Source: Alphaproteobacteria bacterium (lineage in GTDB: Bacteria > Pseudomonadota > Alphaproteobacteria > RF32 > CAG-239). Taken from it: a stretch of DNA of 64,000 nucleotides. The notes beneath the pieces were generated by a model, which saw nothing but the letters and a program-made list of their open reading frames with translations, searched no databases and was not told where the DNA came from. Numbering within the stretch: position 1 is the first letter of the stretch; each line of letters begins with the position of its first letter. The DNA is taken from assembly GCA_045659785.1 (NCBI GenBank), contig JAZRCM010000011.1:4902-68901 (forward strand), given 5' to 3'. This document shows positions 5,356 to 63,612 of this stretch, one piece after another. The translations under genes and the position numbers were made by a program.

Positions 5356-5916
5356 TTGTTCAAAAGAAGAAAAAAACAAACACTGTTGACCAGAGCAAAA
5401 TCGTGGTTTTGGCCCTCTATCGGTTGGAGCAAATACAGACAATATTTGGTATTACGACTGAGCCGATTGGGGAGTACGCCGTATTCTATTGCGGCCGGAG
5501 TTGCCTGCGGGGTTGCAATATCTTTTACTCCGTTTGTCGGTTTGCATTTTGTGTTGGCAGCAATTACCGCTTTTTTGTGTCGCGGAAATATTTTAGCTTC
5601 TGCCGTTGGAACGGCAATGGGAAATCCGTGGACTTTTCCGATTATTTGGGTATCGGTATATTATACCGGAAAATGGTTTTTGGGTATCGGAGTTGATAAG
5701 CATGTTTCGTTTATGCAAACTTTTGAAAAAGGAATGCATGCTTTGATGAGTTTTGATTTTTCAAATTTTGTAACCGATGTTTGGCCGGTTATATATCCGA
5801 TGATGGTAGGTTGCATACCCTATTACATCGTTTCATGGTTGTTAAGCTATTATATTGTTTGGCATGCCTTAAATCATATAAGCAGAAAAAAGAAACAAAA
5901 AAGGAATGTAATATGA
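5356..5916 (+). CDS. DUF2062-family membrane protein
   Basis: 186 aa, multiple TM helices, conserved GNPWTFP motif. Confidence 0.55.
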   Translation: MFKRRKKQTLLTRAKSWFWPSIGWSKYRQYLVLRLSRLGSTPYSIAAGVACGVAISFTPFVGLHFVLAAITAFLCRGNILASAVGTAMGNPWTFPIIWVSVYYTGKWFLGIGVDKHVSFMQTFEKGMHALMSFDFSNFVTDVWPVIYPMMVGCIPYYIVSWLLSYYIVWHALNHISRKKKQKRNVI

Positions 5917-6299
5917 TAATCGGGCTTGGAAATGACATATGCAATATTACGCGAATTGAACAAAGTTATAAAAAATTCGGTCAGCATTTTATCAAACGTT
6001 GTTTTGGTAAAAACGAGCAAGCAGAGTTGCAACAGCTTGCAGATGAAAAGAAATTTTGTGCGTCTTTAGCCAAAAGGTTTGCTGCAAAGGAGGCTTTCAG
6101 TAAGGCTTTAGGAACAGGTTTTAAGAACGGACTTGTTTGGGCGGAGATAGAAATTTTACATAAGAAAGACGGACAACCTTATGTTTGTCTTTCCGAGAAA
6201 ACAGAACAGCTCATAAAAGAAAAAGGAGCTAAAAATATTTTTGTAAGTTTATCCGATGACTATCCTTTTGCACAAGCGGTGGTCATTATTGAGGGTTAG
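5913..6299 (+). CDS. acpS: Holo-[acyl-carrier-protein] synthase
   Basis: MIIGLGNDICNITRIE...FAAKEAFSKALGTG is the AcpS signature. ATG overlaps the upstream stop (atga). Confidence 0.8.
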   Translation: MIIGLGNDICNITRIEQSYKKFGQHFIKRCFGKNEQAELQQLADEKKFCASLAKRFAAKEAFSKALGTGFKNGLVWAEIEILHKKDGQPYVCLSEKTEQLIKEKGAKNIFVSLSDDYPFAQAVVIIEG

Positions 6300-6315
6300 A
6301 TTAAGAGAGGAAACT

Positions 6316-7047
6316 ATGGAAGAAAGAGAAAGTTTTGCCGATACAATTAAGACAGTAGTATTAGCTATCGTTATTGCTGTTTTAATCAGAAGTTTTTTAT
6401 TTGAGCCGTTCAAAATTCCGTCCGGTTCAATGTATCCTAATTTGTATGTCGGGGATTTTTTGTTTGTGTCAAAATATACGTACGGATATTCAAAGCACTC
6501 TTTCCCGTTCAGTATTCCTCTGTTTTCTGGCAGGATTTGGGCAGATGAGCCTAAAGTCGGTGATGTTGTGGTATTTAAATATCCTCAAGATAATCGCACT
6601 GATTTTATCAAAAGAATTGTCGGTGTTCCCGGAGATAAAATCAAATTGGAAAACGGTCGTTTATTTATAAACGGCAAAGAACTTCCGCGTGAAGAAAAAG
6701 AAAATTTCGTCGTTCGCAATAATATGGGATATGCGGAACGTTATCATCAATATGTTGAAACCTTGCCAAATGGTTTGGAACATACAATTTTAGAAATTTC
6801 CGATAACGAAAATGATGATAATTTTGCAGAAGTTACCGTTCCTGAAAATAATTATTTTATGATGGGCGATAATCGTGATCGTTCTGATGACAGTCGTATT
6901 CATGTCGGTTTTGTTCCTTATGAAAACTTGGTAGGAAAAGCTCGTTTCTTGTTCTTTTCTTATGATCCTCATGAAGGAGCTTGGTATAAGCCTTGGACTT
7001 GGGGCAAAAAAATTCGTTGGCGCCGTTTGTTTAATAAAATATCATAA
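6316..7047 (+). CDS. lepB: Signal peptidase I
   Basis: N-terminal TM helix, SGSMYPNL catalytic Ser box, KRIVGVPGD and GDNRDRSDDSR boxes. Start at ATG 6316 after an agagagg RBS. Confidence 0.85.
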   Translation: MEERESFADTIKTVVLAIVIAVLIRSFLFEPFKIPSGSMYPNLYVGDFLFVSKYTYGYSKHSFPFSIPLFSGRIWADEPKVGDVVVFKYPQDNRTDFIKRIVGVPGDKIKLENGRLFINGKELPREEKENFVVRNNMGYAERYHQYVETLPNGLEHTILEISDNENDDNFAEVTVPENNYFMMGDNRDRSDDSRIHVGFVPYENLVGKARFLFFSYDPHEGAWYKPWTWGKKIRWRRLFNKIS

Positions 7048-7061
7048 AAAAGCAGGTAAAT

Positions 7062-7730
7062 ATGGAAGCATTAGAAAACAAACTCGGATATAAGTTTAAT
7101 GATAGGACATTGTTATTCAGGGCTTTAACTCATAGCAGTATTACCGGCAACTTATCTGCAAATTATGAGCGCTTGGAATTTTTAGGCGATAGAGTTTTGG
7201 GGGTGGCTGTTGCGGCAATGCTGTGCCGATTGTTTCCTAATGAGCCGGAAGGAAATTTGTCGCAAAGATTTATGGCCTTGGTTTGTAAAGAAACTGTTTC
7301 GGAAGTTGCTTTAGATTTAGGCTTAGATAAATATATTCGAGCCGAAGGTATAGATGTAAAAAATAATGATAATGTTCTTTGTGATGTCGGAGAAGCAATT
7401 ATCGGTGCCATATATACGGACAGCGGTTGTGTGCAGGCGATAGAGTTTGTTGAAAAACATTGGGGGGCGTTGATTAATACTCATACCAATCCGCCCAAAG
7501 ATGCTAAAACTGCTTTGCAGGAATATGCTCACAGCAAAGGATGGAATACTCCCAAATATACGGAAGTAGGTCGTGAAGGAACTGAACATAATCCTATTTT
7601 TTCAATGAAAGTTGTTGTTAACGGACAGGATGAACAAATCGGAAAAGGACATAATAAAAAACTGGCCGAACAAGATGCAGCTCAAAAGATGTTAAAAGCT
7701 TTAGGAGTAAAAAATGGAACAAAAAAATAA
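7062..7730 (+). CDS. rnc: Ribonuclease III
   Basis: ERLEFLGDRVLG RNase III signature plus C-terminal dsRBD. Confidence 0.9.
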   Translation: MEALENKLGYKFNDRTLLFRALTHSSITGNLSANYERLEFLGDRVLGVAVAAMLCRLFPNEPEGNLSQRFMALVCKETVSEVALDLGLDKYIRAEGIDVKNNDNVLCDVGEAIIGAIYTDSGCVQAIEFVEKHWGALINTHTNPPKDAKTALQEYAHSKGWNTPKYTEVGREGTEHNPIFSMKVVVNGQDEQIGKGHNKKLAEQDAAQKMLKALGVKNGTKK

Positions 7731-8625
7731 TCTTCCGTCTCGATGCGGTTTTGTTACTCTTATCGGAGCTCCTAATGCCGGAAAATCTACGATTACCAAT
7801 GATTTTGTCGGATCTAAAGTGTCGATTGTAAGCCCTAAAGCTCAAACGACCAGAACAATGGTTAAGGGGATAGGTATTTATGAAAATACCCAAATTATTT
7901 TTCAGGATACCCCGGGAATTTTTAAGCCTAAACGTCGGTTAGACAGGTCTATGGTTGCTTCGGCGTGGGGCGGAGCAAAAGACGGCGATATTTTGGTTTT
8001 GGTGGTCGATGCAAAACGCGGATTTGATAATGAAACCAGAACTATAATTGATGAACTTAATAAACAAAACAGAGAAGCAGTTTTGGTCTTAAATAAGGTT
8101 GATATGTTGAGCAAAGAGAAGCTGTTACCTTTATCTGCAGAACTCAATGCTTACGGACATTTTGCGGAAACTTTTATGGTGTCGGCTACTACCGGCGAAA
8201 ATATGGATATTTTTTATAAATATTTAGCAGATAATTTGCCTTTATCTACGTGGTATTATCCGGAAGAACAAATGTCGGATATGCCATTGAAACTGTTGGC
8301 AGCAGAGGTTGTTAGAGAAAAACTGTTTTTAATGTTGCAACAAGAAATTCCATATTCTTTAACTGTTGAACCGGAATTGTGGCAAAGACGTGATGATAAT
8401 TCTGTTCGTGCGGAAATGACTATTTATGTGGAAAGAGAAGGACAGAAGAAGATTATTGTCGGACAGGGCGGAACGATGATTAAAAAGATAGGTGAAAAGG
8501 CTCGTCACGAATTAGAGAATATGCTTGATTGCCGTATTCACTTGTTTTTGTTTGTGAAAGTTCGTGAAAATTGGGTGAATGATCCTGCCAGATATAGCGA
8601 TTGGGGATTGAATTATAACGCTTAA
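7714..8625 (+). CDS. era: GTPase Era
   Basis: GAPNAGKST P-loop, DTPG, NKVD motifs and C-terminal KH domain. Overlaps the rnc 3' end. Confidence 0.9.
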   Translation: MEQKNNLPSRCGFVTLIGAPNAGKSTITNDFVGSKVSIVSPKAQTTRTMVKGIGIYENTQIIFQDTPGIFKPKRRLDRSMVASAWGGAKDGDILVLVVDAKRGFDNETRTIIDELNKQNREAVLVLNKVDMLSKEKLLPLSAELNAYGHFAETFMVSATTGENMDIFYKYLADNLPLSTWYYPEEQMSDMPLKLLAAEVVREKLFLMLQQEIPYSLTVEPELWQRRDDNSVRAEMTIYVEREGQKKIIVGQGGTMIKKIGEKARHELENMLDCRIHLFLFVKVRENWVNDPARYSDWGLNYNA

Positions 8626-9986: not shown

Positions 9987-10083
9987 TAATAATTTTTTAT
10001 AAAATAGAGTTTGATTTTTTTTGTTTTTTGTCATATAATGTGAGTAATGAAAATCATTATTAACAAATTAAAACCTTATAGCT

Positions 10084-10629
10084 ATGAAAAAGTTTTTTGT
10101 ACTTTTCGTGATGATGTTTTCGGTGATTGCATCATCATCTGCACAGTCAAAGTGGATTGAGGATTCAGATTGGAAGTTGCACGTTGCTCCTACCGTTTAT
10201 GGCGGATACAACTGCTTGGAGAATGCTCCGATTGCCGGAGTGGCCGTTCCTATCTATGTCAACTTTATCCGTGCCGAGCTTGACTTTGGGTATACTTATC
10301 TCAACACATACCTCGGTCACAAGGATTTTATGACATTCTCACCATCTATTGGTGTGCAGTATGGCAACAAGGTTCGTGGATATGCGATGTACGGATGGAC
10401 AACTTGGGCAAATATTACCAAGGTAGGAGCTCCGAACAGTAAATGTCCTACGGACCGTTTCTACTCTGACCTTTTCCACCACAAGATTAAGGGCGGTGTA
10501 GAGGTTATCCTGACGAAGAAGCTTTTCCTCAATGCGGAGGTTGGCTATGTCTTCTCTAGGGAGAGTAGTACCTACTATGAGAATTTCAGCAACTTGTCAC
10601 TCCGTGCGGGTCTAGGTTGGAGATTCTAA
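10084..10629 (+). CDS. Small outer-membrane beta-barrel protein, paralog 2
   Basis: Signal peptide MKKFFVLFVMMFSVIASSSAQ. Shares WxxHVAPTVYGGYNCLE, FIRAE, KKLFLNAE[LV]GYV and GWRF blocks with paralog 1. Confidence 0.55.
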   Translation: MKKFFVLFVMMFSVIASSSAQSKWIEDSDWKLHVAPTVYGGYNCLENAPIAGVAVPIYVNFIRAELDFGYTYLNTYLGHKDFMTFSPSIGVQYGNKVRGYAMYGWTTWANITKVGAPNSKCPTDRFYSDLFHHKIKGGVEVILTKKLFLNAEVGYVFSRESSTYYENFSNLSLRAGLGWRF

Positions 10630-32842: not shown

Positions 32843-32945
32843 AGAAAATAATATTTTAGAGTGTTAATAATTTTCGAAACTTGTTTATTTTTAACACAAA
32901 TAAAATTTTTTGTCTATAAAAAACAACTTTAATGTCAGACAAAAC

Positions 32946-50113: not shown

Positions 50114-51178
50114 ATGGAAGAAAGAATAGTTACACCTCATGAGTTGCCGGAAGATGATAACGGAGTTAATGCTCCGGCTAATTTGCGTCCGACCTCGTTG
50201 AGTGATTTTGTCGGGCAAAAGCAAGTTTGTGAAAACTTAAAAATTTTTATTGAAGCGGCAAAAATGCGTGGAGAATCGTTAGACCATGTGTTGTTGTTCG
50301 GACCTCCGGGATTGGGAAAAACAACCTTGGCTTCTATTGTTGCAAAAGAATTAGGAGTCAATTTTAAGGCAACATCCGCACCGATGATTACAAAATCAGG
50401 AGATTTGGCGGCAATTCTCACTAATTTGGAAGCAAATGACGTATTGTTTATTGATGAAATTCATCGTTTGAATCCGGCTATTGAAGAAGTTTTATATTCG
50501 GCGATGGAAGATTTTCAACTTGATTTGATTATCGGAGAAGGTCCGTCGGCTCGTTCTGTCAGACTTCCGTTGCAGCCGTTTACTTTAGTCGGAGCTACTA
50601 CACGTTCCGGATTGCTTTCTACACCTTTACGTGAACGTTTCGGTATTCCTTTACGTTTAGATTTTTACTCTCCGGAAGACTTGGAAAAAATAGTTCTTCG
50701 CGGAGCTCGATTGCTGAATGTTCCGATGTCACCTGAAGGGGCAAGAGAAGTTGCTCGCCGTTCGAGAGGAACGCCTCGTGTTGCCGGTCGATTGTTACGA
50801 CGAGTTCGTGATTTCGGGGCAGTTATTTGTGATGGTGAAATCGGAGAAAAAACTGCAGATATGGCCTTGCAAAGATTAAATGTCGATAAATTCGGGTTAG
50901 ATGCTTTTGATAAACGCTATTTGAATTGTATTGCCAAAAACTACGGCGGAGGTCCGGTCGGAGCGGATACTTTAGCTGCAGCCTTATCGGAAGAAAGAGA
51001 TACCATTGAAGAAGTTATTGAGCCGTTTTTGTTAAAACTGGGCTTTTTACAAAGGACTCCGAGAGGACGTGTTATTTCTGATTTGGGATGTGAATATTTG
51101 AGGATTCCGAAATTGCGTAAAAATGTAAAGCAATATAGCGAACAAGATGATTTATTCGGGAGCGAAGATAATGAGTAA
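50114..51178 (+). CDS. ruvB: Holliday junction ATP-dependent DNA helicase RuvB
   Basis: Walker [10 protein letters not shown], Walker [11 protein letters not shown], sensor and winged-helix domains. Confidence 0.95.
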
Positions 51179-51611
51179 GGTTGAAACTGCACAAGGTAAG
51201 TTTGAAGGAAATAAGTTTTATTTTCCGGTAAGAGTATATTATGAAGATACCGATGCCGGCGGTATAGTTTATTATGCTAACTATTTGAAGTTTGCGGAAA
51301 GAGCTCGTACCGAATATGTGAGAGCAATCGGTTTGCGACAACAAGATGCCTTAGAACAAGAAGAAAAAGCTGCATTTGTAGTTCGTCATTGTGATATTGA
51401 TTATAAATCTCCGGCGGTTTTGGATGATTTGTTGACCGTAGTTTGTGAAGTTACGGAGTTTGGAGGGGCTTCAGTGGTGATGCACCAAGATATTATGCGA
51501 GGAGATGATGTTTTGGTCAGTTTAGACATTAAAGTTGTTTATGTTTTGTTGAAAAATAAACGACCGTCCCGTTTGCCGGCAGAACTTATAAAAAGTTTTA
51601 AGGGGGAATAA
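51171..51611 (+). CDS. ybgC: Tol-Pal-associated acyl-CoA thioesterase
   Basis: 4HBT hot-dog fold ([15 protein letters not shown]). Overlaps the ruvB stop. Placed ruvB-ybgC-tolQ as in alphaproteobacteria. Confidence 0.8.
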
Positions 51612-51615
51612 AGAA

Positions 51616-51648
51616 AAAACCGTCGAATTATGATATTCGGCGGTTTTT
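51616..51648. terminator. Bidirectional terminator (aaccgtcgaattatgatattcggcggtt + T run)
   Basis: Repeated almost identically at 52589-52618, so it is part of the duplicated unit. Confidence 0.5.
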
Positions 51649-51668
51649 TGATTGTTTTTCAGAGTTGC

Positions 51669-52502
51669 TTACATATCTGCATGAACATAAGTATGTTTTT
51701 TCTTTTTCGGTTCCTTGTTTGTGCAATATGTATCAATGACAAACAGGAAGGCGATAAAACACAGTATGTAGGTGAATGAATATATCCACCAAGTGCTCGG
51801 AACAATCTCTCCGTACTTGAGGGTTTCTTCATCAATCAGCTTTTCAGATGCAAAAAATGTGTCTCTGAATTGATAAACATGGACATTCTGTCCTTCCACT
51901 AATGGTTCTTTGGTGCAAATGTCTTTTGAGTAGTGCAAAATTCCGTGAGGATTGTTGTAGTAAACGATGTTGTTCTCTACGCTCGAAATCGTTCCTTGCC
52001 CGACATATTTACTGCTTTCATAATCTAAAGCGACTATTATAATAATAGCTAAAGGAATCAAAAAGCAGATAATTTTGCCCTCTGTTGATACATTGACAAA
52101 TACAACAACCAGTATCAATACGATGATACCGACAATCAGGCAATTCGTTGAGGTTTCAGTATCGGAAAATTCGGTTTCTTTCAACATGTCCCTAATTGCG
52201 CGAGCATCTTCAAGATTTACTTTGCTGATTGCGTACTGGTCATCACAACGATAGACATAAACTCCGGTTGTATCTTCAACTAAAATACGCTGAAGAGCCC
52301 AACTCGGATTAGCTAAGTCTTCGGTGTTGGGAACAATATAAGTTACATCGGTGCTGTCTTTTTCAACACGGATATACTTATCACGAACAATCTCACATTT
52401 TTCGGCATAATCAATCAATTCACACTCGGTATCGATATGGTTGCAGGCAGTAAATGCGGACAACAACACGATACTGGTCAAAAACAGAAAAATCTTTTTC
52501 AT
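51669..52502 (-). CDS. Lipoprotein with Cys-rich N-domain, TM hairpin and C-terminal domain, tandem paralog 1
   Basis: Lipobox LLSAFTAC. CxxxxC..C..C cluster. DARAIR motif. 2+1 TM helices. NPHGIL and VPSTWWIY blocks are shared with the next gene. Confidence 0.55.
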   Translation of the reverse strand: MKKIFLFLTSIVLLSAFTACNHIDTECELIDYAEKCEIVRDKYIRVEKDSTDVTYIVPNTEDLANPSWALQRILVEDTTGVYVYRCDDQYAISKVNLEDARAIRDMLKETEFSDTETSTNCLIVGIIVLILVVVFVNVSTEGKIICFLIPLAIIIIVALDYESSKYVGQGTISSVENNIVYYNNPHGILHYSKDICTKEPLVEGQNVHVYQFRDTFFASEKLIDEETLKYGEIVPSTWWIYSFTYILCFIAFLFVIDTYCTNKEPKKKKHTYVHADM

Positions 52503-52588
52503 AAGCGTGTATTTTAATAAGTTAATAATTTTTTTTCGTGCGAAAAATATACATCACCACAAAAGTAAAGTCAATTTTTTTAATAAAA

Positions 52589-52618
52589 AAACCGTCGAAT
52601 ATAAAAATTCGGCGGTTT
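52589..52618. terminator. Terminator (aaaaaaaccgtcgaatataaaaattcggcggttt), a copy of the 51616 element
   Basis: Same stem sequence as the 51616-51648 hairpin. Confidence 0.5.
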
Positions 52619-52638
52619 GTTTTACGGTCATTTGAAAA

Positions 52639-53523
52639 CTACTCTTTGTTGTCTTCTTTTACCTCCTCAACGCTGTGTTCGTAGAACATCTTGTTTTTGT
52701 GTCGGCAGAAGATAAATTGCCAAAGTGCATATATGACAAGAAGTACGGCGATGAGATAGAAAACAATAAACGATGCTATAAACGTTATGGTGTAAATCCA
52801 CCAAGTGCTCGGAACAGTTTCCGAATACTGAAGAGTTGCATCGTCAATTCGCTTTTCTGAAGCAAAGTACGTGTCTTCAAACTGATAGATGTTAACTTCC
52901 TGACCTTCGTGCAGAGGTTTGCTTGTGCAAATGTCGTTCGAATGTTGCAAGATACCGTGAGGATTGTCCACATATACAACATTGTTTTCAATGTTAGTGA
53001 CGGTTCCTTTTCCTATAAATTTTACGGCTTCTACATCAGCAGCAGTTGCGATGATTATAAAGCCTATCGGAATGAATAACAGCAAGAACTTGATGCTGTC
53101 TTTGCTTGTCATAGAGAAAAGTATGAAAACAATCAGTGCTATAACGAGCACAATTCCGCATCTTGCGGCAATTTTCCAATTGCTGAACTCTTCACTTTTT
53201 AAGACATTACGAATAGCGCGGGCATCGTCTACGTTAATTTTGCTGATGGCATATTTGTCATCACACTTGTAGATATAGACATTTTCGCCGTCGTTAACCA
53301 GATTTCTGACTAAAAACGAGGCGGATGGCTCCAAGAAGTCCTCAGTATTGGGGACCATGTAGAAGACATCTGCACTATCTTTTTCAACGCAGACATACTC
53401 GTCAGTAACTACCATGCAGTTTTCGGCATAGTCAACAAGTTCACACTCTGTATTGATTTTGTTGCAGGCAGTAAATGCGGACAACAAAACAATTCCGGTC
53501 AAGAATAAAAAAACTTTTTTCAT
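52639..53523 (-). CDS. Lipoprotein, tandem paralog 2 (roughly 55-60% identical to paralog 1 by eye)
   Basis: Same architecture and collinear motifs as 51669-52502. Own TTGACT-type promoter and conserved aaagtcaattttttta upstream motif. Confidence 0.55.
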   Translation of the reverse strand: MKKVFLFLTGIVLLSAFTACNKINTECELVDYAENCMVVTDEYVCVEKDSADVFYMVPNTEDFLEPSASFLVRNLVNDGENVYIYKCDDKYAISKINVDDARAIRNVLKSEEFSNWKIAARCGIVLVIALIVFILFSMTSKDSIKFLLLFIPIGFIIIATAADVEAVKFIGKGTVTNIENNVVYVDNPHGILQHSNDICTSKPLHEGQEVNIYQFEDTYFASEKRIDDATLQYSETVPSTWWIYTITFIASFIVFYLIAVLLVIYALWQFIFCRHKNKMFYEHSVEEVKEDNKE

Positions 53524-53691
53524 AAGCTGGAAATTTAATGTGTTAATAATTTTTCTTTATGGACAAAAATTTATACTAAACGGATGAAAAAGTCAATTTT
53601 TTTATTTAAAATGCTATAAATTAATTGATTTTTTAACTTTTTATAGTAGGTTATGCTCAACTATCAGTATGTCAAATTTTATGAGGTAAAA

Positions 53692-54435
53692 ATGGAAACG
53701 CAAACTTTAGCAGATGTTGCAAACGGCAGTTCTATGTCGATGTGGGATATGATTTGGAATTCTGACTTTGTTACTCAGGTGGTAATGATCGGTTTGATTT
53801 TGGCTTCGGTATGGTCTTGGGCGATTATTATTGACAAAGTTGTTACTTTAAGAGATGTAAGACGTCGTTCTCGCAGTTTTGAGTCTAAATTTTGGTCTGG
53901 CGGTTCATTGGATAAGCTTTATGAAAATATAGATAACACTCCTGATAATCCGATGGCGGCAATGTTTGTTGCGGCAATGAGAGAATGGCGTCGTACCAAT
54001 ATTATGAAATCCAAAACTGACAGAGGTTTGCGAGGTGTTTCTTTGCAACAAAGAATTGAAAAAGCGATGGCTGTATCAATGGATAAAGAGATTGAAGCTC
54101 TTGATACCAAAATGGGGTTTTTAGCTTCTACCGGTTCGGTTGCTCCGTTGGTAGGTTTGTTTGGAACGGTTTGGGGAATTATCGACTGCTTTAATGCTAT
54201 CGCTGCAACGCAAAGTAATTCTTTAGGGGCGATTGCTCCGGGTATTGCGGAAGCTCTTTATACAACCGCTTTCGGTTTGATTGCCGCTATCCCTGCGTGG
54301 GTTGCTTATAATAAAATTTCTGCTGATATTGACAGTTATGCTAATAAACTTGAAAATTTTTCTGCTGAATTTTCAAGCATTTTATCTCGTGAAATTGATG
54401 ATACTGCGATTAGGGCTGATATGGCAGGTGAATAA
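53692..54435 (+). CDS. tolQ: Tol-Pal system protein TolQ
   Basis: MotA/TolQ/ExbB family. 3 TM helices and the conserved C-terminal GLxGTVxG motif. Start at the ATG with a gaggt RBS. Confidence 0.85.
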   Translation: METQTLADVANGSSMSMWDMIWNSDFVTQVVMIGLILASVWSWAIIIDKVVTLRDVRRRSRSFESKFWSGGSLDKLYENIDNTPDNPMAAMFVAAMREWRRTNIMKSKTDRGLRGVSLQQRIEKAMAVSMDKEIEALDTKMGFLASTGSVAPLVGLFGTVWGIIDCFNAIAATQSNSLGAIAPGIAEALYTTAFGLIAAIPAWVAYNKISADIDSYANKLENFSAEFSSILSREIDDTAIRADMAGE

Positions 54436-54909: not shown

Positions 54910-55872
54910 TTGAGAAAATCGTCCTTATATAAATCACTGGCTTTGCATTTGGTTGTCGTTATTTTAACGGCAATTGATGTGTCAGTGCTGTGGCGTAAGG
55001 ATATGTCGTTAGACCAAGTGCCGATTATTGTCGATTTGAATGAGGTGAAACTTTCAGAGTTGACCAATCTTCCGACTAAAGCAGAATTTGGCGAAAAAAA
55101 TACTCCGGCAACTAAGGTAAAAAAAGAACAACCGAAGGCAAAAGAAAAAGAACAGCCGAAACAAGATGAGCCTAAAGAAGTAAAAGTTGAAAAGACAAAA
55201 GAAAAAACTCCGCAAAAGGAAGAACCTGTAAATCCTAAAAAAGATTTTATCGTTCCTCCCGAGCCGGAAAAGAAGCCTGAGCCTAAGAAAAAACCGGAAC
55301 CTAAGCCTAAACCGGCCCCTAAGCCTCAGCCTAAAAAGAAAGAAGTTGCCAAGAAAAAGCCGGAGACTAAAAAGCCTGCTCCCAAAAAATCAGAACCGGT
55401 TTTAGCTAATCCGCTAAAAGATTTGTTGGCCTCCGTTGACAATATGGAGAAAAAACTCGGTGAACAAAATGCAAATGCAACCATCAAGACCGGTACTAAG
55501 GTTAACAATATGGGAATAGAGGGCGGTATCGGAGGTTCATATTTTAGCGACTTATCAATTTCCGAAGCCGATGCTATTGCCGGAAGATTACGTGCTTGTT
55601 GGAATTTGGACCCCGGAGCAATGGGGATTGAAGACATGATAATAGAAATCAGAGCTTCGCTCAATAAGGACGGAACCGTCAAAGATGTTGATATTTTAGA
55701 TAAAGCAAGATATAACAGTGACAGACACTTTAAGGCGGTTGCCGATAGTGCAAAACGTGCGGTTTATATTTGTGCTCCTTATGGTATTTTGTCGCAAAAA
55801 TATCCGCATAAGTATGATATGTGGAAAACGATGTTGTTAAGGTTTAATCCGATTAATCATAGTGTGAATTAA
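54910..55872 (+). CDS. tolA: TolA-like protein
   Basis: N-terminal TM anchor, long K/E/P-rich domain II, small C-terminal globular domain. TTG start per the ORF track. Confidence 0.65.
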   Translation: MRKSSLYKSLALHLVVVILTAIDVSVLWRKDMSLDQVPIIVDLNEVKLSELTNLPTKAEFGEKNTPATKVKKEQPKAKEKEQPKQDEPKEVKVEKTKEKTPQKEEPVNPKKDFIVPPEPEKKPEPKKKPEPKPKPAPKPQPKKKEVAKKKPETKKPAPKKSEPVLANPLKDLLASVDNMEKKLGEQNANATIKTGTKVNNMGIEGGIGGSYFSDLSISEADAIAGRLRACWNLDPGAMGIEDMIIEIRASLNKDGTVKDVDILDKARYNSDRHFKAVADSAKRAVYICAPYGILSQKYPHKYDMWKTMLLRFNPINHSVN

Positions 55873-55885
55873 TTAAGGAAATAAT

Positions 55886-56617
55886 ATGGCAGAAATAAGA
55901 AAAATTTTGCTTAAGAGATTGTTTGTAAACAGTACAAAATATTGTATCAGAAAATGGCATGAAATGGCGTTATTTTCGATTGTAAATGCTATTTTTATGA
56001 TTGTCGGTTTTAAGTTTATTAACGGATGGCAAGATAAACTTTTTTTATTGTGGCTAATCCCTTACTATATGTTTTGGTATTCGTTTTTCCGTTTTTATTT
56101 TGAACGAAAACCATATATGATAACATCAAAGATTTTTGAAACATTGATGCCGTCTTCGCGTATTTTCGGTTTGATGTTGTTTTTTACAACTCTGCTTATC
56201 GCTATTCCGTTGGTAATTCCGTTTATTAGTGATAACCACTCTTGGGTGGATAGATACATATTCTATCTGCAAAAACATATGGAAGATCCGTTGATTTTGA
56301 ATACGATAACCATGGTTATATTCAGTATTGCTTCGCCGTTTATTTTTTATCGCCCGATGATGGGGTGGATTGGTTCGGTTATCGGTCGTAGCGGCTTACT
56401 TTCTAGCGCATACGCACGCACAAAAGGAAACTATTGGGAATTTTTATTAATCACCATCGTTTTTAATTTGGTGTATTCAATAATGCAATTTTGTGACAAT
56501 CATTTGGGAACAGCAGGATGGTTAACAATTTTGTTAGGTTCTCCCGTGGTCGTGTTTATGAACGTGATTTTAGCAAAAACATACGAATATTTCTTTTTGG
56601 AAATAGACAACGGTTAA
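55886..56617 (+). CDS. Polytopic membrane protein, hypothetical
   Basis: 243 aa, about 6 TM helices, no family recognised. Occupies the position where tolB would be expected. Confidence 0.45.
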   Translation: MAEIRKILLKRLFVNSTKYCIRKWHEMALFSIVNAIFMIVGFKFINGWQDKLFLLWLIPYYMFWYSFFRFYFERKPYMITSKIFETLMPSSRIFGLMLFFTTLLIAIPLVIPFISDNHSWVDRYIFYLQKHMEDPLILNTITMVIFSIASPFIFYRPMMGWIGSVIGRSGLLSSAYARTKGNYWEFLLITIVFNLVYSIMQFCDNHLGTAGWLTILLGSPVVVFMNVILAKTYEYFFLEIDNG

Positions 56618-56642
56618 AAGATTTTTCTTAATTTTGCTACGT

Positions 56643-57302
56643 TTATTTTAATATTTTCAAAATAGCGACAACTTTCGCCAAGCAAGACAATTTATTTAAA
56701 TTACTGATTGTTATTGGCGGATATAAAGGGTTGTCGGATATTATTTGTGCATTGTGCTCAAATTCGTTAAAACAAAGGCGTTTTATAAATAATTCTCCTT
56801 GTAATTCGAACAAATAAATACCGTCATATTCAGGTTTTGTAATTGATGTGTCAACAATGGCTATATCTTTGTCGCATACTGTGGGCAACATGGTGTCTCC
56901 GCGCACAATAATTGCTTTCAGTGAATGTATGGAAGCGGAGCCAAGATTGTTGAAAAAGTTTTTGCTGATAGGATATTGTCCGACAACCGGAGCGGATAAT
57001 CCTTTTCCTTCCGTTGTGGCGCAGTCAATAATATCTGCAAAAAATATTTGCTCATCGGTTGTTGATGATTTTTGTGTCGGTTGAGGAATTTCGTTTGAAA
57101 AACCGGAATTGAATTTGGTTAGAGCTTCCAAATCGAGATTGAAAAATTGTGCGGCAGGTAAAACTTTATCAACCGGTAAATCTCTTTTTCCACATAAAAG
57201 TTCTGATATTCGAGGCTTTTTCCAATTCAATGCTTCAGCGGCATCTTGTTGGCTGATTTTGTTTTGACGCATATAATCTCTTAACCATTTCCATTTTGAC
57301 AT
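56643..57302 (-). CDS. Phage CI/LexA-like repressor (XRE HTH + S24 peptidase domain)
   Basis: N-terminal HTH (NKISQQDAAEALNWKKPRISEL). C-terminal S24 fold (IVRGDTMLPT; FIKRL with catalytic Ser/Lys spacing). Confidence 0.75.
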   Translation of the reverse strand: MSKWKWLRDYMRQNKISQQDAAEALNWKKPRISELLCGKRDLPVDKVLPAAQFFNLDLEALTKFNSGFSNEIPQPTQKSSTTDEQIFFADIIDCATTEGKGLSAPVVGQYPISKNFFNNLGSASIHSLKAIIVRGDTMLPTVCDKDIAIVDTSITKPEYDGIYLFELQGELFIKRLCFNEFEHNAQIISDNPLYPPITISNLNKLSCLAKVVAILKILK

Positions 57303-58373: not shown

Positions 58374-58551
58374 AAAGTTATCCACAACCTTAATTAGATA
58401 ATATTGACTTTTTCGACGGTTTGTGGTATGTATTTTTTCTAGAATGGAACAGGTGGCTTCAGAGATAAGCTGCCTGTTTTTTTGTGTGAAATTTGACCGA
58501 AGAGAGTATGTTATTTTCTTCGGTTTTTTTATTTTTAGGAGAGAATAAAAA

Positions 58552-59274
58552 ATGGCAAACGAAACTTATAACATTTTACAAGGCATATTTAACGGACAAA
58601 CACCGATACAACGCAGTAATCCGGTGAGCGGAGAAAGCAATTATTATTATATGAAACCTAATCAAAATTCTTATACTCCGTTGTCACAAATGCAAACCGT
58701 TGATGTGCCGTCGGCAACAACTCCAAATCCGTATTTGAGGGAGGGATATGGTAATTCGTATTCTAAAAACTCTTTTGGAGATTATTTTGCAGAAAATATT
58801 ACGGATAAGACTATGACTGATAATAAAGAAAAATTTGATATAAACAGATTTATGAAAATATATGCAGAGAATTTAAATAATTTAAATCCTGGATATAGAA
58901 TTGGCGAGACAGCGAATAATCTTTATGAAGGGAAAAGTTTTTTGAGAAACGCCAAAGTTCACGGATTAGATAATTATGTTCATCGTTTAGCGATGTGTCA
59001 AAACGCACAAGACGGAATAGACAAGTACTTATATACACAAGGGATGGGATTATTAAACGAAGCAAAGGATTTAATTGAAAAAACGGAGTTTTCTAGACTT
59101 AATGAAAAAGAGGTGAGAGAAAAATTTGTTAATGACCTTATAGACTCTGGAAAGGATATAAAAAATAACTTTGAAGGAGCAAATTGGGGCTTGCTTAATC
59201 CAAATAAATCTTGTATAATGTGGCTTAAAGATTTAGATTATAAAAACAATGTTTGGAAGAATAAAAATGATTAA
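58552..59274 (+). CDS. Polymorphic-toxin-like protein 1: conserved 60-aa N-terminus + unique C-terminal domain
   Basis: The first ~60 residues (MANETYNILQGIFNGQTPIQR.NP.SG.SNYYYMKPNQNSYTPLSQMQTVDVPSATTPN) are nearly identical to 59430-59921. The C-terminal 180 aa are unrelated to it. Preceded by two terminator hairpins. Confidence 0.5.
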   Translation: MANETYNILQGIFNGQTPIQRSNPVSGESNYYYMKPNQNSYTPLSQMQTVDVPSATTPNPYLREGYGNSYSKNSFGDYFAENITDKTMTDNKEKFDINRFMKIYAENLNNLNPGYRIGETANNLYEGKSFLRNAKVHGLDNYVHRLAMCQNAQDGIDKYLYTQGMGLLNEAKDLIEKTEFSRLNEKEVREKFVNDLIDSGKDIKNNFEGANWGLLNPNKSCIMWLKDLDYKNNVWKNKND

Positions 59275-59362: not shown

Positions 59363-59429
59363 CAGAAAGTAATTTTTTTACAAGCCGCTCTTTAATTAGG
59401 GCGGTTTTTGTTTTTGGTAGAATATAAAA

Positions 59430-59921
59430 ATGGCAAATGAAACTTATAATATTTTACAAGGCATATTTAACGGGCAAACTCCGATACAACGCACTAACCC
59501 GATGAGCGGACAAAGCAATTATTATTATATGAAACCTAATCAAAATTCTTATACTCCATTGTCACAAATGCAAACCGTTGATGTGCCGTCAGCAACAACT
59601 CCAAACCTGTATTTGACGGAAGAGGAACCTAATTTTATAGAAAAAGGTATTTCTTTAATTCAAGACGGAGTAACGGCTTTCAAATATTATAAGGAAATGG
59701 ATGAAACAAATAAAAAGCTTATAAATATGTATGGAAAAGGGGCTTTTGATTTTGTTAGAAAAAATAATAGGCCTTGGACAGAAGTATCTGCAGATGCGAT
59801 AAAGGACTTGACGAACAATCGCTATGGTTCTAAAGTCGGTTATAGTAATAGAGAGGCAAATTGCAGAGATTTGTTGGGACATTTAAGGACAGGAAATATG
59901 ATAAATGCAGGTATTAAATAA
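59430..59921 (+). CDS. Polymorphic-toxin-like protein 2: same N-terminus, different C-terminal domain
   Basis: 163 aa. N-terminal 60 aa match protein 1. The C-terminus (..GSKVGYSNREANCRDLLGHLRTGN..) is unrelated to it. Confidence 0.5.
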   Translation: MANETYNILQGIFNGQTPIQRTNPMSGQSNYYYMKPNQNSYTPLSQMQTVDVPSATTPNLYLTEEEPNFIEKGISLIQDGVTAFKYYKEMDETNKKLINMYGKGAFDFVRKNNRPWTEVSADAIKDLTNNRYGSKVGYSNREANCRDLLGHLRTGNMINAGIK

Positions 59922-60327: not shown

Positions 60328-60337
60328 TGTTGATTTA

Positions 60338-60372
60338 TGTTTTTTATAAACCGCTCTTTTTAGAGCGGTTTT
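60338..60372 (+). terminator. Rho-independent terminator (aaaccgctctttttagagcggtttttt)
   Basis: Perfect 9 bp stem. A degenerate copy of the same element follows the 59267 gene at about 59376-59400. Confidence 0.5.
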
Positions 60373-60395
60373 TTGTTTTTATGGGAGAATAAAAA

Positions 60396-60524
60396 ATGAA
60401 ACTTATAATAAGAATTTTAAGGACTTGACGAATAATCGCTATGGTTTTAAAGTTGGCTATAGTGATAAAACGGCAAATTGCAGAGATTTGTTGGGGCATT
60501 TAAGAACAGGAAAGATAAAAAAAT
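60396..60524 (+). pseudogene. Internally deleted remnant of a toxin-2-type gene (start codon + 12 nt joined to the last ~110 nt of the C-terminal domain)
   Basis: The upstream context ggagaataaaaaatg and the segment ggacttgacgaataatcgctatgg...gcagagatttgttggggcatttaagaacagga match 59430-59921. Stop codon after 10 codons. Confidence 0.45.
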
Positions 60525-63108: not shown

Positions 63109-63612
63109 ATGATGAAAAAAACAAAAGATTATAAAAGTGAATATGCTCAAAAACTTGTAGCGTGGTTTCGTGATGCTCCGTTGTTTGTTGAAGAAACAAA
63201 AGAAGTTTTCAGCAAAAAGTCGGATAAAATAGAAACAATTATCGAAAAACAACCCGCTCCTTGCCCGAGTGTAGTTCGTTTTGCCGATAATCTGAAAATA
63301 AATGTTGAGGATATTTTGCGTTGGCGAGAAAAAAATTCCGAATTTAAATCCGCTTATGAGCAAGCAATGTATTTTCGGGAAGAATGGTTGATGAATGCAG
63401 CCGGATTGGGTTTTTATAATTCATCAATGTCAATTATGGCATTGAAGGCAAATCACGGTTGGTCGGAGAAAAGCGAAAAACAGTTGATTGATGACGGGAT
63501 CAAACAAGTTTTAGTTCAATTTGTAAAAGATAAAGGAGAAAATTATGAAAAAAATAACGGCGAAAATTCCGCAAATATTTGCTCCGCTAATGACGAAAAA
63601 ATATCGGATTAA
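63109..63612 (+). CDS. Phage terminase small subunit
   Basis: 167 aa. Conserved helix-rich region VVRFADNLKINVEDILRWREKNSEFKSAYEQAMYFREEWLMNAAGLG typical of TerS. Overlaps the start of the next gene. Confidence 0.55.
   Translation: MMKKTKDYKSEYAQKLVAWFRDAPLFVEETKEVFSKKSDKIETIIEKQPAPCPSVVRFADNLKINVEDILRWREKNSEFKSAYEQAMYFREEWLMNAAGLGFYNSSMSIMALKANHGWSEKSEKQLIDDGIKQVLVQFVKDKGENYEKNNGENSANICSANDEKISD

Follow-up and report, generated by a model that had tools for sequence, protein, structure and literature searches.

Lineage-specific tandem paralogues of a predicted lipid-anchored inner-membrane protein upstream of tolQ in uncultured Alphaproteobacteria

The 64,000-nucleotide (nt) stretch analyzed here, termed the window, comes from an Alphaproteobacteria bacterium (contig JAZRCM010000011.1, positions 4,902 to 68,901) and carries two paralogous lipoprotein genes, copies A and B, between ybgC and tolQ. 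They belong to a new, narrowly distributed family of lipid-anchored inner-membrane proteins predicted to contain three membrane helices and two periplasmic β-barrels. The family usually lies upstream of tolQ in divergent orientation, is found in tandem in the genus of the window, and is recombinationally variable. This description is well supported. As to their role, the best guess, with the balance tipping slightly in its favor, is that these lineage-specific tandem paralogues are a periplasm-facing binding or scaffold module, most likely non-enzymatic, loosely coupled to TolQRA.

A tandem pair of lipoprotein genes

Both genes are encoded on the minus strand. Copy B (52639..53523) is an open reading frame (ORF) of 294 amino acids (aa) whose orthologues are 75-97% identical, and copy A (51669..52502) is an ORF of 277 aa with orthologues of 70-95% identity. 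The first-pass annotation of this DNA had described two collinear paralogs, and BLASTP aligns them collinearly at 58% identity across 258 aa (E 1e-109). The unit of promoter, coding sequence and terminator repeats with a period of 1021 bp. The two homologous units are adjacent, on the same strand and collinear, regulatory elements included, so the whole unit, as had been proposed, is a genuine tandem segmental duplication. The motifs read at that stage were all found again in both proteins: the lipobox VLLSAFTAC with its Cys at residue 20, [ED]DARAIR (about residues 99-105), NPHGIL, EGQ.V.[IV]YQF.DT[FY]FASEK, and VPSTWWIY. The description of a CxnC-rich N-terminal domain required correction; the conserved cysteines are Cys27, Cys36 and Cys87 in domain 1 and Cys199 in domain 2.

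Protein family and predicted architecture

No match reaching threshold was obtained for the family in Pfam, NCBIfam, PHROG or PADLOC, no relative in PDB was found by sequence profile search, and nothing relevant was found in the literature on DUF5666 or on the ybgC/tolQ gene order. The gene family is therefore novel, as first supposed, in that no annotation exists in the databases searched. A word-indexed search returned 12 close clusters, to which profile searches of the same database contributed next to nothing, and a full hidden Markov model search of 1.84 billion representative proteins returned 40 clusters (50% identity). Nearly all are 260-295 aa long, match end to end, and have one common architecture. 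Source names occur in two lineages only, "Alphaproteobacteria bacterium" (that of the window itself) and an "Acetobacter sp." metagenome-assembled genome (MAG; P0025); these named sources are uncultured gut or rumen Alphaproteobacteria. The TolQ genes next to family members come from rumen or gut MAGs labelled Alphaproteobacteria, Rhodospirillales or Azospirillum.

In copy B, a signal peptide with lipobox (Cys20) precedes β-barrel 1 (about aa 21-112). Transmembrane helices TM1 and TM2 together span about 115-161 and lead into β-barrel 2 (about 165-238); a long TM3 (about 241-272) comes next, and the tail beyond it is charged. The architecture of copy A is the same, with a shorter TM3 and a KKKK tail. 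The membrane hairpin and final membrane helix noted at first sight are reproduced by hydropathy, which marks a signal peptide, a hairpin at about 115-161 and a final helix starting at about 240, and AlphaFold agrees. With a shallow alignment of 14 sequences the AlphaFold2 model was poor (pLDDT 60); with the alignment of 37 sequences that was used, pLDDT reached 91 and pTM 0.82, and the model contains two small β-barrels with helices at 115-138, 142-161 and 241 onward.

Both copies have the sequence features of a lipoprotein signal (MKK-, a hydrophobic core and SAFTAC). Of 37 members, 34 have a lipobox with a PS51257-like core, and Cys20 is at least 90% conserved in the family. Both are thus predicted to be substrates of signal peptidase II, lipid-anchored at Cys20. 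Nearly invariant positions of the family are Cys20, one Asp, one Gly and two Tyr.

An internal repeat was detected between residues 21-139 and 164-265 (hhalign probability 97.8%, E 8.7e-13), in line with a secondary high-scoring segment pair in the BLASTP comparison of the copies. This profile match of domain 1 to domain 2 implies that a unit made of a β-domain (about 65 residues) and a membrane helix has been duplicated within the protein. The net charge is +1.0 in the TM1-TM2 loop and +2.8 in the C-terminal tail, and both barrels are net negative. From this distribution, both barrels are predicted to lie in the periplasm, and each would be fastened to the inner membrane at its two ends. Read from the N-terminus, the predicted layout begins with lipid-anchored Cys20 and barrel 1; TM1 and TM2 follow, joined by a short basic loop in the cytoplasm, then barrel 2 and TM3, and the chain ends in a basic tail, also cytoplasmic. 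The term lipoprotein therefore holds as far as the lipobox is concerned, but these are not simple lipoproteins, given three membrane helices and an internal domain duplication. Proteins of such a build would be expected to remain in the inner membrane and not to be displayed on the cell surface, which contradicts the earlier suggestion of a surface factor.

The locus in related genomes

Related loci are numbered L001 onward; some of them were located by a TolQ-based scan of genome contigs. The same pair, B then A between tolQ and ybgC, is present in L001-L003, L005, L015 (RGIG9009, water deer rectum) and L016 (RGIG4207, roe deer colon). In diverged lineages the site is occupied by one copy only, which diverges from tolQ and converges with ybgC: P0013 in L009/L010 (35% identical to copy B), P0014 in L011-L013 (26%), P0019 in L014 (26%), and P0018 in L095 (22%). 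The insertion is therefore older than the duplication. In L097, the block p238-tolA-tolR-tolQ together with the family gene (P0020, 27% to copy B) is inverted relative to ruvAB-ybgC and the S24 repressor, and the lipoprotein gene stays with tolQ despite this inversion. In L099, which has no ybgC there, a separate tandem pair adjoins tolQ (P0017 and P0045, 28% and 22% identical to copy B). This pair, at 6001-7877, is divergent from tolQ, has a GC content of 41%, and its two members are only 21% identical to each other; it is independent of the pair in the window. The gene is thus adjacent and divergent to tolQ in the window, L001-L004, L009-L016, L095, L097 and L099.

No family member was found near tolQ in L017-L030, and ruvB-ybgC-tolQ is contiguous in L020, L022-L024 and in the outgroups L031-L034. 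The contiguous ybgC-tolQ order is therefore ancestral, and the pair does interrupt the ruvAB-ybgC-tolQRA order, as had been stated. The duplication described as inserted is not recent, however, because the pair is common to sister species. The lipoprotein gene entered the site within this clade, on one or several occasions. Its linkage to tolQ is frequent, not obligatory. Single copies in the tol cluster of relatives do exist, but no function is annotated for any of them.

Promoters, leaders and terminators

A promoter of the TTGACT type with a conserved motif had been proposed for each copy, and a consensus scan placed near-consensus promoters on the minus strand before both genes. That of copy B (53568..53602) comprises an A-tract, TTGACT, 17 nt and TAAATT (hexamers within 53596..53568); that of copy A (52546..52580), which directly adjoins the terminator of copy B, comprises an A-tract, TTGACT, 17 nt and TATATT (hexamers within 52574..52546). 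The 14-mer AAAAAATTGACTTT has exact matches in the 64 kb only at these two promoters. Upstream of the single-copy genes of L009, L011 and L014, an A-tract, TTGAC[TA] and a -10 hexamer of the TAnAAT type are also found (TATAGT in L011).

The leaders of both copies have no Shine-Dalgarno sequence. In copy B the leader motif AATTATTAACACATTAAA matches exactly at 53534..53551 (minus strand), and in copy A the motif AATTATTAACTTATTAAA lies at 52513..52530 (minus strand); each ends 10 nt before the ATG. The core AATTATTAAC occurs 5' of the gene in the lineages read, with one mismatch in L011 (AATTATTTAC), and sits 10-20 nt before a start codon devoid of a Shine-Dalgarno sequence across lineages. Promoter, with its 17-nt spacer, and leader are thus kept in lineages with only 25-37% protein identity.

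Copy B ends in a hairpin terminator at 52583..52625 (minus strand; core arms 52592-52615, followed by a T-run), and a bidirectional hairpin terminator serving ybgC (plus strand) and copy A (minus strand) is located at 51614..51649 (core 51620-51643). The pattern CCGTCGAAT-N6-ATTCGGCGG has two occurrences only in the window, at 51620-51643 and 52592-52615, and matched in 0 of 100 shuffles. The identical terminators reported earlier are confirmed for the hairpin arms; the loops differ. On the strand of the lipoprotein genes, a single C.A mismatch interrupts the stem (-14 kcal/mol, z about -4). On the plus strand, the hairpin stem is perfect with a G.U pair (-27 kcal/mol), and the first hairpin therefore also terminates ybgC. 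An Rfam scan gave no match near gathering scores.

A further element, ATAAATTAATTGATT, lies upstream of tolQ at 53616..53630 (plus strand). Its consensus AATTAATTGATT, with the palindrome AATTAATT, was found about 60-100 nt upstream of the tolQ start in 16 of the 17 lineages read; it is missing in L097, and three other lineages have a one-base variant. The element is a candidate promoter or operator of tolQ. It is present where the lipoprotein gene is absent, and for this reason it was assigned to tolQ, and the idea of an operator common to both genes was rejected.

The lipoprotein leader motif (ATTATTAAC-AA-ATTAAA, about 11 nt, ATGAAAAAG) was also observed at 10055-10072 (plus strand) of the window, before ORF 10084-10629. 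This ORF encodes a secreted protein of 181 aa that looks like an outer-membrane β-barrel (it ends GWRF), and TTGATT, about 16 nt and TATAAT can be read by eye upstream. A leader of this kind without a Shine-Dalgarno sequence may be common to envelope genes. A weaker match at 32855-32872, before a cytoplasmic CoaD-like fusion protein, may be due to chance.

Age of the duplication, selection and exchange of alleles

Between copies A and B, synonymous sites are saturated (proportion of synonymous differences, pS, 0.80; nonsynonymous divergence, dN, 0.36), so the duplication is old. In the family tree, the two copies of the window are sisters relative to all other members, and the duplication is therefore specific to the genus of the window. 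The first 45 codons are exceptional: pS is 0.41-0.46 there against 0.7-1.0 elsewhere, and an identical run of 27 nt extends across the lipobox. Together with the conserved promoter and leader, this pattern points to either 5' gene conversion or constraint at the nucleotide level.

Both copies are kept under purifying selection, with ratios of nonsynonymous to synonymous divergence (dN/dS) of about 0.1-0.18. Relative to the L001 orthologue, dN/dS is 0.096 for copy A and 0.135-0.147 for copy B; between the two copies in L001 it is 0.18, with dS near saturation. The protein is most conserved in its barrels and varies most in its membrane helices and tail. Conservation of the barrels gives no pointer to diversifying selection on exposed domains.

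Across the diverged lineages, identity to the window is 85-87% for RuvB, 81-83% for TolQ, 73-78% for TolR, 54-60% for TolA, 52-65% for ybgC, 34-48% for p243, and 25-37% for the lipoprotein, which makes its gene the fastest-evolving of the block. In comparisons with close relatives, divergence along the locus is mosaic. Relative to L100/L101, the flanks have a dS of 0.07-0.26, but copy A has a dS of 1.15, a dN of 0.19 and 74% aa identity. Relative to L001 and L016, nucleotide identity is about 90% in the flanks and 67-86% in copy B. Copy A is 89-96% identical to that of L001; relative to L016, it is 95-100% identical over most of the gene, with 100% in its central part, and copy B is 70-86% identical. 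These differences between copies and flanks imply that species have traded alleles of either copy through recombination. The variation suggested for the pair in the first-pass annotation is supported in this sense. In L004, copy A is split into ORFs of 164 aa and 76 aa; the possibility of a pseudogene was rejected, for the scaffold contains a run of 10 N (about 5656-5665) and no frameshift.

Possible role of the family

In several diverged lineages, a single gene has its own strong promoter and terminator and is transcribed divergently from tolQ. In the genus of the window, the 1021-bp unit was duplicated long ago with both copies retained, and alleles have been swapped between species by recombination at either copy. 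Within the protein, a small β-barrel module is predicted to have been duplicated internally, and both barrels would be anchored at either end and sit on the periplasmic side of the inner membrane, where they may serve as a binding or scaffolding module coupled to TolQRA. Two observations lead to this proposal. No catalytic-looking residues are conserved in the family, and a non-enzymatic module for binding or scaffolding at the periplasmic membrane surface is therefore most likely. Moreover, the adjacency to tolQ has survived repeatedly, which suggests joint work or co-regulation with the TolQRA motor.

Several points weigh against this proposal. In eleven GTDB relatives (L017-L027, TolQ 82-87%) the 6 kb around tolQ contain no family member, and four of these eleven are the relatives with contiguous ruvB-ybgC-tolQ. 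Three distant members (L006-L008) occur in unrelated contexts, beside YhdP, PDT/histidine kinase, and RNase G/YacG. The neighbor-joining tree on TolQ and TolR is weakly resolved and does not separate one ancestral insertion with subsequent losses from repeated gains. The gene lies on the strand opposite to the tol operon with its own promoter and terminator; it is therefore not in the operon, and co-transcription does not link it to the tol genes. Synteny within one clade may be simple inheritance. Finally, Foldseek found no significant structural match to the whole-protein model (best E 0.32, TM-score at most 0.25).

Accordingly, an explanation unrelated to Tol has a real, though clearly smaller, chance of being correct. 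The region just upstream of the tolQ promoter may be a hot spot of rearrangement or recombination, and the gene a passenger in it. The protein would then be, with the same limited probability, a weakly constrained accessory envelope protein that is inherited with the block and freely duplicated, replaced or lost. Content upstream of tolQ does differ among relatives: L017/L018 have arrays of small paralogues there, L021, L025 and L027 encode other secreted proteins, and ybgC directly adjoins tolQ in L020 and L022-L024. Distant family members live away from tol genes. Allele replacement anchored in conserved flanks is directly seen, and the greater variation of helices and tail than of barrels is what general drift predicts, unlike targeted diversification. 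A mere passenger fits less well with an adjacency to tolQ that outlasts the inversion in L097 and the loss of ybgC in L099, with a promoter and leader strongly kept though the protein has diverged to 25-37%, and with the retention of both duplicates by purifying selection.

A bolder variant of the coupling to TolQRA was also considered and is rated as rather unlikely. The Tol cluster may have been remodelled in this clade, and the lipoprotein may be a clade-specific partner of TolQRA. It may instead guard against toxins or phages that depend on Tol, a conflict that would have driven its diversification and duplication.

A protective factor is similarly improbable. The proteins would act as inner-membrane immunity or exclusion proteins against bacteriocins or phages that use Tol, and would be engaged in an arms race. 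Rapid evolution relative to the rest of the block, mosaic alleles exchanged horizontally, tandem duplication on at least two occasions, and a membrane-embedded, predicted periplasm-facing position beside tolQ all recall immunity proteins, and in the closest comparison dN/dS rises to 0.36 in the C-terminal half of copy B. Over the whole gene, however, dN/dS is 0.10-0.18, and conservation is highest in the exposed barrels. Furthermore, the family has no PADLOC or PHROG match and no member on viral contigs, a BFVD structure search with the model gave a best E of only 0.065, and no toxin gene is adjacent.

That the ORFs are non-coding, or that the unit was lately brought by a mobile element, was weighed because the pair interrupts the canonical order and faces the other way; no supporting point was found, and this scarcely credible explanation was rejected on the grounds of purifying selection, 40 homologous clusters, a confident structure model, a GC content of 36-40% similar to the surroundings, no transposase, integrase or flanking repeats at the pair (window ORFs and repeat scan), and a position kept in lineages with 25-37% protein identity. 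The preferred reading thus remains a periplasm-facing module loosely coupled to TolQRA.

The Tol cluster and flanking genes

The convergent neighbor of the pair is ybgC (51147..51611, plus strand; TIGR02799, 160 bits against a cut-off of 141). The divergent neighbor is tolQ (53653..54435, plus strand; TIGR02796, 257 bits). Its true start is likely at 53692, with GAGG just before it; the tolQ of relatives is called at 245-247 aa.

In the window (54910-56617) and throughout the clade, the gene after tolQ-tolR-tolA encodes an unknown polytopic membrane protein, p243 (55886-56617), in the place where tolB-pal-cpoB would be expected; p243 and p247 are the unknown membrane proteins next to tolA in the clade. 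In the outgroups (L031, L034, L039), a TolB-sized ORF (433-490 aa) directly follows tolA, and lipoprotein-like ORFs come after it; tolB and pal were assigned there from ORF position and size only. Searches by tblastn with TolB, Pal and CpoB of outgroup L031, and with Pal of L034, found nothing in the window or at any tol locus of the clade.

Between p243 and the S24 repressor, relatives have one more unknown gene, of 226-247 aa (L001 6237-6917). In the window, only 25 bp separate the two (56617-56643), and this gene is therefore missing. The CI/LexA-like S24 repressor (56643-57302, minus strand; phrog_4, E 9e-31) stands beside the tol block in every lineage with a readable flank (L001, L011-L014, L095, L097, L099). 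A small terminase follows in the window (63109-63612, plus strand; phrog_3064, E 1e-21), and the ORFs between the two have no PHROG matches. Phage packaging genes also follow in L001 and in L011-L013 (TolQ about 81% in L011-L013). The stretch from repressor to terminase could be a fixed prophage remnant or an element resembling a gene-transfer agent. It contains repeats at 58521-58800, 59370-59621 and 60336-60410, to two or three of which single stretches of L001 match at 79-92%.

In L017 (1461-5363) and L018 (1517-5877), a tandem array of 5-7 small paralogous ORFs upstream of tolQ replaces ybgC and the lipoprotein gene. These ORFs are 80-270 aa long, start with MEKIKQKI, and contain recurring L[IV]KSGN motifs.

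Significance

Tol-Pal is a central machine of the envelope, and the alphaproteobacterial outgroups examined keep its genes in a conserved order. A membrane lipoprotein that evolves rapidly, is specific to one clade and has a stable place at the tolQ promoter would be a candidate for a new accessory or modulator of Tol-Pal. Its build is also unusual, combining a lipid anchor with three membrane helices that are predicted to derive from an internally duplicated β-barrel unit. Because no annotation exists for it anywhere, the family would deserve a formal definition of its own; practical use is limited, since the organisms are uncultured.

Comparison with known systems

The closest comparison in genomic position is with the accessory genes of Tol-Pal, ybgC and cpoB/ybgF. 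As in these, a gene for an envelope protein stands beside tolQRA in several diverged lineages. The lipoprotein gene differs in its opposite strand and its separate promoter and terminator, in its confinement to one uncultured clade, and in its absence from the site in some close relatives. No homology to TolQ, TolR, TolA, TolB, Pal, CpoB or YbgC was detected at Pfam/NCBIfam thresholds.

In sequence, the family has a pattern in common with DUF5666 of Pfam, G-x-[IV]-x-x-[IV] ... G-[DQ]-x-V-x-[IV]-Y. Residues 175-218 of P0028, in barrel 2, match DUF5666 with E 8e-4 and 20.1 bits against a gathering threshold of 27; such matches, below threshold, occur in three of 37 members, and the proteins of the window are not among them. 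DUF5666 is a small β-barrel domain that secreted proteins and lipoproteins often contain in several copies; it is not known to have a comparable framework of membrane helices. In structure, the best Foldseek matches in PDB are OB-fold or SH3-like barrels (the RuvA N-domain, the TSST-1 N-domain, Stn1/Ten1 and the PAN N-domain), none of them significant; as a lead, the model suggests that the β-domains may belong to this fold class.

In overall plan, the family can be compared with DUF3592-type and NfeD-type membrane proteins, which are built of a transmembrane helix, a small β-domain and a second transmembrane helix. No Pfam match of either type was listed up to E 0.1-1, a range in which HMMER filters drop most matches above about 0.1. 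What they have in common is a small β-domain with a membrane tether on either side. In the lipoprotein family, in contrast, this unit is duplicated, and the first anchor is replaced by the lipobox.

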